This document shows, piece after piece, positions 363 to 7,309 of a stretch of DNA of 64,000 bases (position 1 is the stretch's first letter; each line of letters opens with the position of its first letter). Position numbers and translations under genes: made by a program. Below the pieces are notes generated by a model. That model ran no database searches. It saw nothing but the letters and a program-made list of their open reading frames with translations, and was not told the DNA's origin. This stretch comes from an uncultured archaeon (GTDB taxonomy: Archaea; Asgardarchaeota; Thorarchaeia; Thorarchaeales; Thorarchaeaceae): assembly GCA_964610875.1 (NCBI GenBank), contig CAZSWP010000001.1:1-64000 (forward strand), given 5' to 3'.

Positions 363-525
363 GAGTCGGGCAACAAAGGCTTCGCTGTAGTAAGATATTC
401 TTCATCGAAGCCATCCCTTTTGGCAATCAACAACAAATGACTCACCACTATATAGAACGGTTAGTTCCAAAACAGTCTTAATGTGAGTGAGTTGGAATTC
501 AATGACACTCTTCGAGGCGAGTTGC

Positions 526-1884
526 ATGGACTATTATAATAAGGCTGGTGTAGAACCAATTGGTGATATAACCCGTACGCATTATACAAAAGATATTACT
601 TCCGAGAATGTGGGCAAGAAAGTAGTTCTAATGGGTTGGGTTCACATTCTACGAGATAAGGGGAAAATAAAATTCTTAGTGCTTCGTGATGAACGTGGAA
701 GTACTCAAGTAACAATCCCACAAAAGAAGGTGACAGAAGAAGTCTTTGACTTATCTGGGAACCTAAAACCTGAGATGGCTATATGTGTTGAAGGTGATGT
801 TGTTGCGACAAAGCATCTTGAATCTGGTGCTGAGGTCATACCGACCAAGATTCGAATTCTAAACACTTCGGAGAGACTACCAATAGAGATTGTAGAAGGC
901 AAAGTCTTCATTGATCTGGATACACGACTGACTCATCGGATTCTTGACCTGCGTAAACCTACTGTAAATGCTATTTTCCGGATTCAACACAGTCTTGTCC
1001 GTTTTGCACGAGAGTTCCTAGAGCAGAATGAGTTCGTTGAAATCCACACACCCAAAATTGTTGCAGAAGCAACAGAGGGTGGCGCTAATCTATTTGAAAT
1101 AAAATACTTTGAGAAGAAAGCGTATCTTGCTCAGAGCCCGCAATTCTACAAACAATTGATGCTTTTAGCAGGATTTGGACGAGTCTTTGAGATTGCTCCT
1201 GTCTTTAGAGCTGAAAAGCACAACACTCGACGACATGTAAATGAATACACATCTTTTGACTTTGAGATGGCATGGATAAGTGATGTCGAAGATGTCATGA
1301 AGATGGAAGAGCAGATGCTAGAGTACTCCTTCAGGAAGACAAAGGAACATGCTGCTGCTGAATTGGACTTACTTGAGATTGATTTCAAGATTCCAAAATT
1401 ACCATTCAAGAGGGTCAAATATATAGAAACAATCGAGTTGCTAAATGATGCTGGCAAAGATCTCAGTATTCATGATGATATAGACCCTGAAGGTGAAAAA
1501 CTACTGGGAGAGATATTCCCTGAGAAATATGATACAGACTTGGTATTCATTACTCATTATCCATTGGAACTCAGGCCTGCCTATACAATGCCGAGTCTGA
1601 CAGATGAGGGAATGACAGAGAGTTTCGACCTCACATACAAAGGAATGGAAATAACCACTGGGGGACAAAGAATTCATCTCTGCGACCTTCTGGTTGAGAG
1701 ATTCAAAGCAAAAGGCTTCAATCCAGATGCATTTGGTTTCTATCTTGACCCATTCAAATTTGGTGCACCACCTCATGGAGGCCTAGGTCTGGGTGTTGAA
1801 CGTCTAACAATGCAACTGCTTGGTATTGAAAACATACGGGAAGCCACATTACTTCCAAGGGATAGAGATCGCATTACTCCATAA
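526..1884 (+). CDS. aspS: aspartate--tRNA ligase (archaeal type)
   Basis: OB-fold N-terminus ([11 protein letters not shown]), [10 protein letters not shown], motif 2 FRAE, motif 3 [16 protein letters not shown]-terminal PRD; start moved to ATG 526. Confidence 0.93.
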
Positions 1885-2023: not shown

Positions 2024-2800
2024 ATGTATCACAACGTTGAAACTGAGCTTTATGCTTCCATCGCTACCCTTGACCAATTGAAGAAGCTCTATGATGTTGG
2101 CGCTGTAGATATAGTATCATATCAAAGAGAATCAGAAGCTCTTGTAAGAGAAGTGAATTCAAGAATAGAAGAACTCAGAAGATTGGGCGTTGATGTGGGT
2201 GACTTTCTAAGTTCAGAGAGAGTTCCTGACAACTTCCCTGATGCTGCATCACTCCTCAGGTTTCAAAGCAGACAACAAACCTCCTCTTCAGATGGTATGA
2301 AAATGGACCAATATTATGATAGATTAGGGCTAGCAATTCTTGATGTCGCAACATATAATGCTTCAAAAGGCCTTATGGGCCTCGCCGAACTGATTGTCGA
2401 AGTGGTGAAACGAGTTCCTGAGTTAAAATCCGTGAGCTATAATGATGTAATTGAAGCAGTAAATCGTGTTGCTGAAAATGGTCTTATCCCCGGAATCAAG
2501 ACATTACGCGGTGGAGTAAAAGTTGTAGAACTACGACCTCTTGAATTAAGGCGTGATCAAGCTGATGTTGTAAATCTGGCTGCGACAAAAGGATTTACAT
2601 CAGTTGAAGAAGTCATGGTAGAGTTGAAATGGTCTGAAGAACATGCTCGTCAAGTCTTGGGTAGTCTAGTAGACGCTGGGATGGCAGTTGCAGATATTAG
2701 GTTTAGCACTGGAGGAAGGTATTATTTTCCCGGTCTAAGAGCTAGGGATTCTCGAGCTCGGGGATATACCCAACGGTCAGATGAGCGAATGTCTGCATAG
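2024..2800 (+). CDS. Vps28 N-terminal (ESCRT-I)-like domain fused to EAP30/Vps22-Vps36 (ESCRT-II) winged-helix domains
   Basis: aa1-80 ELYASIATLDQLKKLYDVGAVDIVSYQRESEAL resembles the Vps28 N-terminal hairpin; aa95-240 DQYYDRLGLAIL...GLMGLAEL...PLELRRDQ...KGFTSV...LKWSEEHARQVLGSLVDAGMAVAD...YYFPGL aligns by eye with Snf8/EAP30; ESCRT gene context. Confidence 0.8.
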   Translation: MYHNVETELYASIATLDQLKKLYDVGAVDIVSYQRESEALVREVNSRIEELRRLGVDVGDFLSSERVPDNFPDAASLLRFQSRQQTSSSDGMKMDQYYDRLGLAILDVATYNASKGLMGLAELIVEVVKRVPELKSVSYNDVIEAVNRVAENGLIPGIKTLRGGVKVVELRPLELRRDQADVVNLAATKGFTSVEEVMVELKWSEEHARQVLGSLVDAGMAVADIRFSTGGRYYFPGLRARDSRARGYTQRSDERMSA

Positions 2801-2808
2801 AATCTGAT

Positions 2809-3537
2809 TTAGACAATTATCTTAACAGCAAATTTCTTTTTGTCCACCCATTCAGCTTGTTCTCGTTCTACAAGAACTTTGAGGACTTGTTCAATGTCCT
2901 CTTCTGGCAGACTTGCAAAGCCGATATTTGAGTGCTGTATCACAATTGTCTGGAGATCGAGTCTTAAAGTTCCTGTCTTTATGGACCACTCATAAATTTC
3001 ATCAGCCCAATCTTCTACGGGTTTCCAATAAACTCGAAGCTGGTGTCTTTTCCTATCTTTCCATATTGCAACATCATCATCCACAAGTTTTGAAGCAATT
3101 AATTTGAACGCCTTAGTCTTATTGAGGATATCTTTGAACGGATGTTCCTTTATGAAAACCGTCAGTGAGATGATATGCGCTTTATTTACTTCCGTCCACT
3201 GGAGAAGAAAATCTGCCCATTCTGAAGCCCACATCTCTTTATCTTCATCTCTTGGTGGGATTGAATACATCCATTCCGTTTCTTCAATCGTACCCCATAA
3301 CGGTGAAAGAACATCTTCCACTGCAATTTCTACAGGAGTACTATCCATTTTTTCCGTATCTGTCGTTTCTTCCTGCTCTGTTTCCCTTATCTTCACTTCT
3401 GGAATGTGAGTTTCAACTTCGGGTTCCAGCTCATATTCATCTCCGAGCTCAGGAAGGGTGACCTCTCTCCCCTCTGTCTTTTCTTTTTCAGATGTCTTGG
3501 ACTTCTCTTTTTTTCTGCGTCTTTCCCTGACGCCCAA
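2809..3537 (-). CDS. vps25: ESCRT-II subunit Vps25 homolog with charged N-terminal extension
   Basis: WMYSIPP...WADFLLQW...VYWKPVEDWADEIYEWSIKTG...FASLPEEDIEQVLKVL...AEW follows the Vps25 tandem winged-helix pattern; directly downstream of vps4. Confidence 0.85.
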   Translation of the reverse strand: MGVRERRRKKEKSKTSEKEKTEGREVTLPELGDEYELEPEVETHIPEVKIRETEQEETTDTEKMDSTPVEIAVEDVLSPLWGTIEETEWMYSIPPRDEDKEMWASEWADFLLQWTEVNKAHIISLTVFIKEHPFKDILNKTKAFKLIASKLVDDDVAIWKDRKRHQLRVYWKPVEDWADEIYEWSIKTGTLRLDLQTIVIQHSNIGFASLPEEDIEQVLKVLVEREQAEWVDKKKFAVKIIV

Positions 3538-3540
3538 GTT

Positions 3541-4776
3541 CTAGGAACCCTCCGCCCATTCGATATATTTTCTCAAATCCTCTGGTGAAGTCGCTGGACG
3601 AATATTTTCTATGGCATTAAGAAAGTCGTCACGTGAAACAGGCCGCAAATCAAAAATCTCTGTGTCATCATCCATTCTTCCTGTCCTCTGAAGGTCGCGT
3701 ATTGGTTCCATTGCAGCCTCTCTACAAATCACACTGATATCACGTCCACTATAGCCTTCACTAAGGTCTGCAAGCTCGGCGTAGTCCACATCTGGTGATA
3801 CCTCAATCTCTTCCATATGAATTTCAAAGATTCTCTCTCTTGCTTTCCTATCTGGTAGAGGAACATGAATCCGTTTTTCAAATCGTGATCTAAGAGCAAA
3901 ATCGAGCTCCCAAGGCAGGTTTGTTGCCCCAATGATGGTAATTCTCTCATCACTTCTACTTGCTAGGCCCTGTATCTCGGTGAGTAACTGTGTCTTTAGA
4001 CGTCTCTCTCCCCCAACATCATCTCCTGACCTTGCTACTCCAATAGAATCTAATTCATCAATGAAGATTATTGCAGGCTGATTTCTTCGTGCCATCTCGA
4101 AAAGCTTTCTAACAAGTCTCTCTGATTCTCCAAGCCATTTACTTACTATATTTGCAGCTGACACATTGAAGAAAGTTGCATTGACTTCAGTTGCAACAGC
4201 CTTTCCAATTAGTGTCTTACCACATCCTGCAGGGCCATAGAATAAAATACCTCTCCAAGGTTGTCTTGATTTTCCCTTGAACAATTCAGGATGCTTCATG
4301 GGTGCAAGAATGGCATCATTGATTGCTTGTTTTGCATCTTTCAAGCCTGCGACTTCATCTAATCTTACATCAGGACGTTCTGTAATTATCGTATCAGTAA
4401 TCATCTCTTGAAGACGTTTGGTATCGTCATCATCTTCTGCTTTTGTAGACGGTTCAGCTTCCACTTTATGAGTTTCAGGAGTACTATCCACTTGTGGTAT
4501 AGTTTTGAGCCCATCAACAGGGCCTCTACTCTTTTTCTTTATCCCTGAAAGATATCTGACCCGATCCACGCACTCTTCAGCACGTGCAAGATAGTGTTTC
4601 CTAACAGAAGGTAGGGCACTTGAATTTGACATCTTTATGAGAATCTTACTAGCTTTGAGATAATGTTGGCATGCTTCTTTTTTCATACCTCTCTTATCTA
4701 GCTCTATTGCCCGTTCTAGCAGATTCTTCAGACCTATATCCAATCGGTCACTGCCACTCCCTGTCATTTCACTCAC
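3541..4776 (-). CDS. vps4: Vps4 AAA+ ATPase (MIT + AAA + C-terminal helix)
   Basis: N-terminal MIT-like helices (AIELDKRG..EACQHY), Walker A GPAGCGKT, pore loop SKWLGESE, Walker B IIFIDELD, ATNLPWELD..RSRFEKR, C-terminal helix. Confidence 0.93.
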   Translation of the reverse strand: MSEMTGSGSDRLDIGLKNLLERAIELDKRGMKKEACQHYLKASKILIKMSNSSALPSVRKHYLARAEECVDRVRYLSGIKKKSRGPVDGLKTIPQVDSTPETHKVEAEPSTKAEDDDDTKRLQEMITDTIITERPDVRLDEVAGLKDAKQAINDAILAPMKHPELFKGKSRQPWRGILFYGPAGCGKTLIGKAVATEVNATFFNVSAANIVSKWLGESERLVRKLFEMARRNQPAIIFIDELDSIGVARSGDDVGGERRLKTQLLTEIQGLASRSDERITIIGATNLPWELDFALRSRFEKRIHVPLPDRKARERIFEIHMEEIEVSPDVDYAELADLSEGYSGRDISVICREAAMEPIRDLQRTGRMDDDTEIFDLRPVSRDDFLNAIENIRPATSPEDLRKYIEWAEGS

Positions 4777-4964
4777 TCATTTCTTATGGCTTTACGTTAA
4801 TAACTTAGGTGTTGCCGAGATACGTATATCATATAAACACAAGATAGATGCGCATCTTTCTCTAAGGATAAGTGTTTTTTATTAATTCAATTATTAGCAC
4901 CGAAGTATTAAATGGCAATTCGTGCTTGGACTGGTAGGGAAAAACACTTCCCGTGGTGAGTGAT

Positions 4965-5582
4965 TTGGGAATCTTCAAGAAAGCCTTTTCATGGGGTCGG
5001 AAAAAACCCGACATAAGTGAAGTTACAGGTCAGTTGCGAATAATGTCTAAACAGCTAGAACGACAACGCAACAAACTCGAAAAAGAAGAACGTGACACTA
5101 AAGCGAGAGCTATTCGCGCACGTCAAACCGGAAATCTAGAGGCATACAAAACATATGCTACAGAGATGGTTCGCTTTAGAAGAATGGCATTATCTATCGA
5201 TAGGTCGCGTCTTCAAACACTAAAGATTCTTGCTCACGTCACCCGTGCTCAAACAACTGCACAAGCGTCTCGTGCGATTGAACAAGTTGCATCAATTCTT
5301 GGAATGCTTGGTGATTCCACTGATGCAAGTAAGGTAGTTGCAAATGCAGATGAGATTGCTAGACGTCTTGAAGAATTTGAGATTGAAAGTAGCATAACTG
5401 GAGATGCATTTGATTCAACAATGGATTCACAGGTCACATCAGAGGATGTTGCAAGTGCAATGCGAGAAATTGATCGTGAAGCGGGTTTGGCAGAAGCTGA
5501 AGAAGCCACTACACAACCTGTGAGCAAGGCCGAAGAACTCGAAGAGGCTATTCGCTCTCTCGAAAAAGAACTCGGTGTATAA
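4965..5582 (+). CDS. ESCRT-III (Snf7 family, probably Vps2/24/46 class)
   Basis: N-terminal amphipathic MGIFKKAFSW (TTG start at 4965 after GGTGA), basic helical hairpin, acidic C-terminal half, MIM1-like ELEEAIRSLEKEL; divergent from vps4. Confidence 0.88.
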   Translation: MGIFKKAFSWGRKKPDISEVTGQLRIMSKQLERQRNKLEKEERDTKARAIRARQTGNLEAYKTYATEMVRFRRMALSIDRSRLQTLKILAHVTRAQTTAQASRAIEQVASILGMLGDSTDASKVVANADEIARRLEEFEIESSITGDAFDSTMDSQVTSEDVASAMREIDREAGLAEAEEATTQPVSKAEELEEAIRSLEKELGV

Positions 5583-5583
5583 T

Positions 5584-7146
5584 TTACCATCTATGCCCGC
5601 TAGAATCGCGTTTAGTACTTTCCAGTTGCTTTCTAGCTAGATAGGTGTCACGCATTAAGCCACGATATCTCCTGATGAAATCTTCGGGAACAATTCTTCT
5701 ATTTCTCATCATTTGAATTGTTTCCTCTAATGCTTCCTGCAGCGCTACGAAGTCCTGTCTAAGTTTGTAAGGATCGCTGCTCCCATTGTATGATTGGGTT
5801 GGTGGTCTTTGCCATCTGTCTGAAAGCCTATGTTTAAGTTCGTCCCTAAAACTATCCTCTCTTCGATACATGTCCTCTCTTATGAGACCCCCAACGGGTT
5901 CTCCATAGTATGGAGACCTCTCATCTCGGTATCCTGATTCAGGATGTCTTACACCTATTGGGTTCTTTGAGGAGAGCAATGCATACACAAGACTCTCTAT
6001 TTTTATCCTCACGTCACTGATATTCACATTCTGTTGTTCTATCTTCCTGACACGCTGCATATCGGATTGCACATAGCGGTCGAATTTCTTTGCTATCTCA
6101 AGGTAGTCTGGTAGAACGCGTAATGTCTGTTCACTGCAAGCAATTTTCAAATCTCCTTGTTTGAGATGAATGACCAGCTTCTTTCGTATTCTCCCATCTT
6201 CCTCGAGGGTATTAATATACATAATTGGAAAGTCGAATATGACCTCCATTTTCTTCCTTACAATACCAGTTTCAGCTAGAAATACAATTCTCTTATTTGT
6301 CACATATAATGTGCCTTGAGCTCTATCATGTCTGAGAAAATCACTGCCTGCTACTTTGATATCGGGAAATGCACATACTGGTAATTCACTCACAGATAGC
6401 TCGCACACCTCATAAAAACCAGCAAAGTGTTTCTTATAGTAGTGTAGTCCATCAAGCTGTCGATGCAGCTCTGTTAGTTCCTTGTGGGCATTACTTAATG
6501 AATCCTCTACATTCATACGATACTGTTCACCAATAGAAATGACTCGATTAGTGACACCCTCTATAAATGGGAACTGTGAAGAACTCCAACCTGGATAGTC
6601 CATAAGACCCTTTGTTTCAGCTGCAAACCTTTTCGAAACCAATTCCGCTTGATTCATAATTCTACTTTTGACAGCTTCAATCTCCTTCTGTAATGCTTCT
6701 AGTCTGTCTTCGAGCCACTTGTAATGTAGAAAGTTTGCCATCCTTAGAGATACTAGGAGTCTTTTTGCAGATACGAGTTCGTTATTGAATTCACGAAGCT
6801 TTGTATGACCGTGATGAATGGACATTATCGCCTGTCGAAGATTCTGAGCTAGGCTCCTACGTTTTTCTTCGATGCTAATCACCATCGAGGAACGACATGT
6901 TGGACATACTTCCTCCACTCGCCTGCCATTACCTAAATCCTCAGATTCACATTCAGGACATTGCTCAAATGATTCTCCTGGAGTTTGTACGCCCAGGTTG
7001 TGATGGCACTCATTGCAAACGGTATATTTTGTGGATTGACTTTCCAAACAGTCAGTGCAGAGTACTTCGCCACATTCTTCGCACATATGGGTGGCTTGAT
7101 TTGTCTGACATCTTTGACAACGCTGAATCGAGGAATCTTCTCTCAA
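5584..7146 (-). CDS. multi-zinc-finger + coiled-coil + GRAM/PH-like + steadiness-box (Vps23/Vps37 core) protein, ESCRT-I-like
   Basis: six CxxC pairs at N-terminus; long heptad region; GTLYVTNKRIVF GRAM/PH motif; C-terminal ALEETIQMMRNRRIVPEDFIRRYRGLMRDTY like the TSG101/Vps37 steadiness box; GGAGG 7 nt before TTG 7146. Confidence 0.75.
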   Translation of the reverse strand: MREDSSIQRCQRCQTNQATHMCEECGEVLCTDCLESQSTKYTVCNECHHNLGVQTPGESFEQCPECESEDLGNGRRVEEVCPTCRSSMVISIEEKRRSLAQNLRQAIMSIHHGHTKLREFNNELVSAKRLLVSLRMANFLHYKWLEDRLEALQKEIEAVKSRIMNQAELVSKRFAAETKGLMDYPGWSSSQFPFIEGVTNRVISIGEQYRMNVEDSLSNAHKELTELHRQLDGLHYYKKHFAGFYEVCELSVSELPVCAFPDIKVAGSDFLRHDRAQGTLYVTNKRIVFLAETGIVRKKMEVIFDFPIMYINTLEEDGRIRKKLVIHLKQGDLKIACSEQTLRVLPDYLEIAKKFDRYVQSDMQRVRKIEQQNVNISDVRIKIESLVYALLSSKNPIGVRHPESGYRDERSPYYGEPVGGLIREDMYRREDSFRDELKHRLSDRWQRPPTQSYNGSSDPYKLRQDFVALQEALEETIQMMRNRRIVPEDFIRRYRGLMRDTYLARKQLESTKRDSSGHRW

Positions 7147-7309
7147 CTGAAATGCCTCCAGTTTCATTTTTACTACTATTATTGCTATGAATAACCTGAG
7201 TATCACGTGGGTATTGTTCAGTTTTCAGAACCAGCGGCCGAAATATGCCCATGTCGAACTAATTATATTCAATCTCATTTGCGATTTTTATAATACTCAG
7301 GGGATATCT

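Follow-up and report, generated by a model that had tools for sequence, protein, structure and literature searches.

A Vps28-type head joined to Vps22 winged helices in Thorarchaeales, its likely origin by merger of neighbouring genes, and a candidate partner

Introduction

In eukaryotes the head of Vps28 packs with hairpins of Vps23 and Vps37 in ESCRT-I, and its C-terminal bundle contacts ESCRT-II (PMC10936438). A 64,000-nucleotide stretch of an uncultured thorarchaeal genome (the window; GenBank assembly GCA_964610875.1, contig CAZSWP010000001.1) raises the question of whether one gene joins these two complexes covalently and, if it does, whether the joined form is old or derived. A preliminary description had read the gene as a Rosetta-stone fusion of the Vps28 N-terminal domain to EAP30-type winged helices, relevant to how the two complexes evolved.

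The fusion architecture itself is already published. Makarova et al. (2024; PMC10936438) described Asgard Vps22 of cog.002769 ("Vps22#") as carrying a fused steadiness box; in their Table S3, residues 1-70 of the Thorarchaeota protein KXH75178.1 are assigned to PF03997, the VPS28 N-terminal domain, with 99% (HHpred). Added here are the limit of the fusion to one order, a likely origin by merger of neighbouring genes, and a candidate partner, none of which we found stated in the open literature searched.

Results

The fusion gene is a single open frame with an ATG start, encoding 258 amino acids, and carries the motifs quoted in the preliminary description. The genes at the locus run in the order aspartyl-tRNA synthetase, fusion gene, Vps25, Vps4, ESCRT-III and Znr_CC_PH_SB (Table 1). 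The protein is 72% identical to ThorAB25_09030 over 243 residues and 72% identical to the SMTZ1-45 orthologue, in both cases with no gaps, and its named homologues are mostly labelled Thorarchaeota. Orthology and a place in the Vps22-Vps25-Vps4-ESCRT-III-Znr_CC_PH_SB cluster identify it as the thorarchaeal steadiness-box-fused Vps22. A promoter and terminator scan gave no signal above shuffled sequence.

The aspS gene stays adjacent to or near the fusion gene across the order (also at L011, L014 and L045-L051), and a TldD gene follows the ESCRT cluster in most sampled members of the host's family. The sister family differs: its ESCRT-III and Znr/PH genes are non-adjacent, the Znr/PH gene does not neighbour the fusion gene, and two membrane-protein genes, one with a weak bacterial PH match, lie between aspS and the fusion gene. 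A second ESCRT-III gene of this genome sits on another contig, away from the cluster.

Table 1. Features of the fusion locus and related genes. Positions without a prefix are in the window; C, contig of this genome; L, locus.
Feature	Position	Strand	Basis or remark
Aspartyl-tRNA synthetase (aspS)	487..1884		
Fusion gene: Vps28-N head followed by tandem winged helices of Vps22 (asCOG cog.002769, thorarchaeal Vps22)	2024..2800	+	Pfam, homologues, orthologue identity
Vps28 N-terminal domain (steadiness-box hairpin plus Vps28-specific short helices), residues 5-80	2036..2263	+	profiles, predicted fold
Flexible linker at inferred fusion junction, residues 81-91	2264..2296	+	pLDDT <50 at 83-88; sequence poorly conserved, length fixed
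Two winged-helix domains, Vps22/Snf8 type, residues 92-239	2297..2740	+	EAP30, human SNF8, Foldseek 3cuq_A
Vps25 (ESCRT-II), convergent neighbour of fusion gene	2809..3537	-	Pfam ESCRT-II E=1.6e-12
Vps4 (MIT plus AAA ATPase)	3541..4776	-	Pfam
ESCRT-III (Snf7 family)	4953..5582	+	Pfam Snf7 E=2.9e-7
Znr_CC_PH_SB protein, 540 aa: zinc ribbons, coiled coil, PH domain, C-terminal steadiness box	5584..7206	-	weak Pfam matches; described in PMC10936438
C-terminal steadiness-box hairpin of Znr_CC_PH_SB (last 64 aa), predicted to pack on Vps28 head	5587..5778	-	profiles, complex model
Second ESCRT-III gene	C5:30155-30643	-	
Sister-family membrane-protein genes (about 454 and 240-266 aa)	L011:4337-6513, L014:2509-4601		
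Free-standing Vps28 C-terminal-domain genes (93-107 aa), four Asgard families	L015:4440-4727, L016:5770-6051, L018:4389-4682, L019:4433-4756, L020:4470-4766		
Longer Vps22-like proteins (333-350 aa), two Asgard families	L032:4479-5480, L034:2970-3986, L042:5067-6068, L043:4483-5535		
Coiled-coil protein, 358 aa, ending in weak Vps28-C-like bundle	C41:24200-25276	-	Vps28-C E=0.054
Coiled-coil protein, 173 aa, ending in weak Vps28-C-like bundle	C30:9103-9624	+	Vps28-C E=0.011
Second EAP30-type protein, 774 aa	C14:12842-15166 (locus L089:843-3167)	+	
Third EAP30 match, in a 703-codon frame	C3:64059-64394 (locus L006)	-	Pfam EAP30 E=1.4e-6

Residues 1 to about 80 had been described as following the Vps28 N-terminal pattern, and more sensitive searches bear this out. 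Pfam VPS28 gave E=0.092 with residues 1-85 alone (profile positions 3-59), below the cut-off, and no match at E<=1 in the whole genome; it is insensitive to the isolated head, and Asgard-specific profiles were used instead. Among homologous N-termini, 26 of 32 matched VPS28 (best E=1.6e-4), and at 26.9 bits the sister-family copy exceeds the Pfam cut-off of 24.5. A profile of unfused Asgard Vps28 N-termini, with members collected using the thorarchaeal head as query and recognised as full Vps28 proteins by Pfam, aligns gaplessly to residues 5-80 with E=3e-16, its sole clear match in the genome. The head alignment retrieved 44 proteins from 1.84 billion representatives; leaving aside thorarchaeal copies or fragments and a single repeat protein, each is an Asgard Vps28 or UEV-Vps23-Vps28 protein, whole or fragmentary. 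A sequence-profile search of solved structures with the same alignment placed yeast Vps28 at E about 0.2, a value not decisive alone.

The predicted fold of the head (pLDDT 93.7) is a hairpin with three short helices, as in Vps28-N. Among 48,161 chains its best structural matches came from ESCRT-I headpiece or core structures, 6vme_E (Z 10.7, rmsd 2.2, 74 residues aligned) and 2caz_E (Z 8.2), with the Vps23 hairpin behind the Vps28 chains at Z 6.5, all on a scale where values of about 10 are modest for helical domains; Foldseek ranked yeast Vps28 (2f6m_B) first. In a two-way control, 120 fused N-termini scored 33-71 bits with the Vps28-N profile and no more than 6.6 bits with a profile of canonical Asgard Vps22 N-termini (62.9 and 1.2 bits for this copy), and 20 canonical, non-thorarchaeal Vps22 N-termini scored at most 8.4 bits against Vps28-N. 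The front domain is confirmed as a Vps28 N-terminal domain. The Vps28-C profile found no match in the reading frame, which lacks the C-terminal four-helix bundle of full-length Vps28.

The second half belongs to ESCRT-II. Dividing the protein at about residue 85, as had been suggested, left a clear Pfam EAP30 match in residues 86-258 (E=1.1e-13) beside the weak VPS28 score, with which the stronger tests of the head agree. This half also matches human SNF8 at E=1e-15, with no Vps36 match at E<=1. It is modelled as two winged helices, for which Foldseek gave human ESCRT-II SNF8 (3cuq_A) at E=6e-9 and chain B at 1e-4; both the SNF8 match and the Foldseek order place the winged helices nearer Vps22 than Vps36, as the preliminary comparison with Snf8/EAP30 had it. 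A tree with eukaryotic sequences is reported in PMC9192718. No Vps36-type GLUE/PH domain was found N-terminal to the winged helices, where the protein is all-helical Vps28-N; a PH-like domain occurs in the neighbouring Znr_CC_PH_SB gene and not on the fusion protein.

The canonical N-terminal helical domain of Vps22/Snf8 is not present upstream of the winged helices, so that this absence and that of the Vps28 bundle, both noted earlier, hold within this protein. The Pfam EAP30 alignment starts at residue 52, and we considered whether this start marks a remnant of the Vps22 N-terminus; that reading was rejected because the alignment of the canonical Asgard Vps22 profile does not begin before residue 85, and the N-terminal part of that profile gives 1.2 bits. 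The linker between the two domains, modelled with low confidence at residues 83-88, is real and varies in sequence (mean identity 0.39) at nearly fixed length across homologues; its earlier characterisation as Ser/Gln-rich applies to this copy only.

The fusion itself is conserved. Independent assemblies had been named as a check, and among the matches listed both domains occur in 120 of 120 homologues, from many samples. Among sequencing runs, none of RNA was listed as containing the gene. Two contigs from such runs span the junction; they belong to one study that may itself be the source, so they are not counted as independent. That the gene is an assembly chimera, or the head a chance likeness of helical hairpins, might be suspected from the single-sequence Pfam VPS28 value of only E=0.09 and from fold Z values near 10, which are modest for helical domains, but next to those 120 homologues, the profile match at E=3e-16 and the published HHpred match at 99%, it is exceedingly improbable.

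The joined form is restricted to one order among the genomes searched. Searching 331 Asgard genomes with the sister-family copy gave 68 full-length matches (170-509 bits), spread over 67 of 72 genomes from the order to which Thorarchaeota belong. The best match outside the order reached 134 bits, and outside matches mostly covered the winged helices only; several distant Asgard families fell below the threshold of this search, and for them the result is that no fusion turned up in the genomes searched. In two unrooted trees, one of the winged helices (98/97) and one of the head domain (95/88), the fused proteins come out as a single group. The Loki, Heimdall and Odin Vps22 sequences printed by Hatano et al. 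(PMC9192718) show, read by eye, no initial Vps28 motif.

Elsewhere the two genes are separate neighbours. Of 18 other Asgard families sampled, 14 have a full, co-oriented vps28 gene upstream of vps22, often 0-12 bases away, and in some sampled families a small free Vps28-C gene or another gene lies between them. The six non-thorarchaeal Vps22 proteins with an upstream vps28 that were scanned cover nearly all of the EAP30 profile, from its first positions to its last, like eukaryotic Snf8. Four Asgard families carry free-standing genes for the Vps28 C-terminal domain between vps28 and vps22 (Table 1), a type of gene mentioned in general terms by Makarova et al. (PMC10936438). In two further Asgard families, Vps22-like proteins have an N-terminus about 90 residues longer, with no Vps28-N match.

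The fusion is most likely a derived merger of neighbouring genes rather than the ancestral state, because it is restricted to one order, forms a single clade in both trees, and has as its counterparts elsewhere Vps22 proteins with Snf8-like N-termini and an upstream vps28. As the trees are unrooted, this direction rests on parsimony with eukaryotes and other Asgard archaea. Adjacent, co-directional vps28 and vps22 genes would have merged in frame a single time, in a common ancestor of this order, with loss of the C-terminal bundle of Vps28 and the N-terminal helices of Vps22. Exactly this protein would result if everything between the Vps28 head and the first winged helix were deleted without a shift of frame. 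No intermediate stage of the proposed deletion was seen.

[quoted passage not shown] Early branching of Thorarchaeia among Asgard archaea is possible, if debated, and counts for it. It would, however, require independent gains elsewhere of both the Snf8-like N-termini and the Vps28 C-terminal bundles, and the 20 non-thorarchaeal Vps22 N-termini score no more than 8.4 bits against Vps28-N, those scanned matching the EAP30 profile from its beginning. The unrestricted statement in PMC10936438 that cog.002769 Vps22 is fused to a steadiness box also speaks for an ancestral fusion, but the sole evidence listed there is one Thorarchaeota protein. We regard an ancestral fusion as quite improbable and proceed with the derived merger.

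Standard Vps28 was not found in the order with the Vps28-C profile, which gave strong matches in five of five control genomes and two marginal ones across 87 genomes of the order. Both marginal matches (3e-4 and 7e-4) have their orthologue here in a coiled-coil protein encoded on contig C41; this protein and another on contig C30 end in a weak Vps28-C-like bundle (Table 1). BAR-like proteins fused to Vps28 have been published for Thorarchaeia (PMC10307638), and the two coiled-coil proteins are probably examples of these. A total absence of the Vps28 C-terminal domain from the genome was rejected as too strong a statement, with divergent ones probably present on other contigs, and its function may have moved elsewhere in the genome instead of being lost.

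What the head binds is suggested by the neighbouring gene. Of 87 genomes in the order, 84 have Znr_CC_PH_SB, usually within the same cluster; its separation from the fusion gene in the sister family counts against the partnership. A UEV-Vps23 query, the one used, found nothing in the host's family, and its sole match in the order (E=1.8e-5) fell on the C-terminal hairpin of the Znr/PH protein from the sister family, a hairpin that on this account is Vps23-like. The profiles used here picked out no further convincing hairpin of the Vps23 type in the genome.

A complex model of the head with the neighbour's hairpin scored 0.78, and the best control scored 0.11. Among solved complexes 58 of 80 attained the level of this model, as did 2 of 110 mismatched pairs. 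Runs shared at least 88% of contacts, with partner pLDDT of at least 67, and one of two partner copies was placed confidently. Because the modelled pair resembles the solved Vps23-C:Vps28-N complex (2f6m), the score possibly derives from known solved structures, and passing the controls speaks for likeness, not binding. The predicted interface falls on invariant columns of both families, and conservation of the head is 0.85 at the interface and 0.71 in the rest, in a comparison of related sequences where buried positions are conserved anyway. A 2:1 complex of partner and head was set aside and no stoichiometry is claimed, with one copy only placed with confidence. From the model and the co-occurrence, the Vps28 head probably has as its binding partner the steadiness box of Znr_CC_PH_SB, the zinc-finger/PH protein encoded next to it.

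Hatano et al. (PMC9192718) remark that the Thor steadiness-box protein may interact with Vps28, and the Thor set given there lists no separate Vps28; the fused head could explain the remark. The same source reports that the AB_25 orthologue, ThorAB25_09030, self-interacts in yeast two-hybrid, and it does so without canonical Vps22 N-terminal helices. Since steadiness-box hairpins pack on each other, the head might serve mainly for self-association, as a dimerisation module that replaced the lost helices and forms no headpiece with the neighbour. Dimerisation need not use the head, however, as Heimdall Vps22 cross-links also in its winged-helix region (residues 160-167), and the neighbour co-occurs in 84 of 87 genomes and passes the model controls. 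Self-association as the main role is unlikely, and it is in any case compatible with a partner role, the two not being exclusive.

Thorarchaeia also encode further ESCRT-I-like multidomain proteins, and the head might bind a different steadiness-box or coiled-coil protein from elsewhere in the genome. The C30 coiled-coil protein has a weak Vps23_core match (E=0.019), but this match sits in the coiled coil, and our profiles found no second convincing Vps23-type hairpin in the genome, which makes such a partner highly improbable and leaves Znr_CC_PH_SB as the candidate.

Discussion

A single origin by merger, followed by formation of an ESCRT-I-like headpiece with Znr_CC_PH_SB, is as a whole the best explanation of these observations and in our judgement a likely one. 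The Vps28 head would pack on the steadiness box of Znr_CC_PH_SB to form the headpiece, and Znr_CC_PH_SB would bind membrane or cargo through its PH domain and zinc ribbons, replacing the missing UEV-Vps23 and ubiquitin. [quoted passage not shown] Neither ubiquitin nor E2 gave a match in this genome, which is 95% complete, and published work agrees with this.

Carried further, this scheme would give Thorarchaeales a ubiquitin-free, two-protein ESCRT-I/II core, in which the derived Vps28-head/Vps22 chain docks directly on a zinc-ribbon/PH steadiness-box protein; we give this proposal slightly better than even chances. If true, it would correct the published view of the fusion as general to Asgard Vps22 and name its partner, and it would mean that ESCRT-I and ESCRT-II, when held together by a covalent bond, can be coupled without the C-terminal bundle of Vps28.

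The protein differs little from what has been described in the same lineage. KXH75178.1, which we take to be the SMTZ1-45 orthologue judging from accession order and not from sequence, has the same architecture with no difference in kind; the difference is one of scope, in that the wording of Makarova et al. makes the fusion a trait of the whole Asgard family and our tests confine it to one order. ThorAB25_09030, from the same five-gene cluster and 72% identical, is handled as plain Vps22 in Hatano et al. (2022; PMC9192718), the Vps28 head going unmentioned in the part of the paper available. Canonical Asgard Vps22 and eukaryotic Snf8/EAP30 (3cuq_A, 1u5t_A) share the tandem winged helices, but their N-terminal helical domain of about 90 residues is here replaced by Vps28-N. 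Vps28 proteins (Asgard full-length; yeast 2f6m_B and 2caz; human 6vme) have the same fold of N-terminal hairpin and short helices, and in addition the C-terminal four-helix bundle that the fusion protein lacks. The UEV-Vps23-Vps28 fusion of Heimdallarchaeia (HeimAB125_14070) is likewise a lineage-specific merger within a vps23-vps28-vps22 gene row; it joins two ESCRT-I subunits and keeps all domains, whereas the thorarchaeal fusion joins ESCRT-I to ESCRT-II with domain loss.

[quoted passage not shown] It is probably a derived simplification, not an insight into eukaryotic ESCRT origins, and no forerunner of the eukaryotic complexes should be seen in it. The fusion is a Rosetta stone only in the weak sense of offering independent genomic support for ESCRT-I and ESCRT-II acting together in one pathway in Asgard archaea. 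The fusion also suggests a way for a lineage without ubiquitin to still recruit ESCRT-III, and its cluster makes a very small system for reconstitution. The refinements offered here, on order, merger and likely partner, are modest and mainly useful to specialists.

Two further EAP30-type proteins are encoded in this genome. The 774-residue protein on contig C14 has a long N-terminal part, a coiled coil, an Ig-like (CarboxypepD_reg-like) stretch and C-terminal winged helices of the Vps22 type, and could possibly be a Vps36-like partner of the fused Vps22; a second match occurs in many genomes of the host's family. A third match above the Pfam cut-off lies on contig C3 (Table 1).
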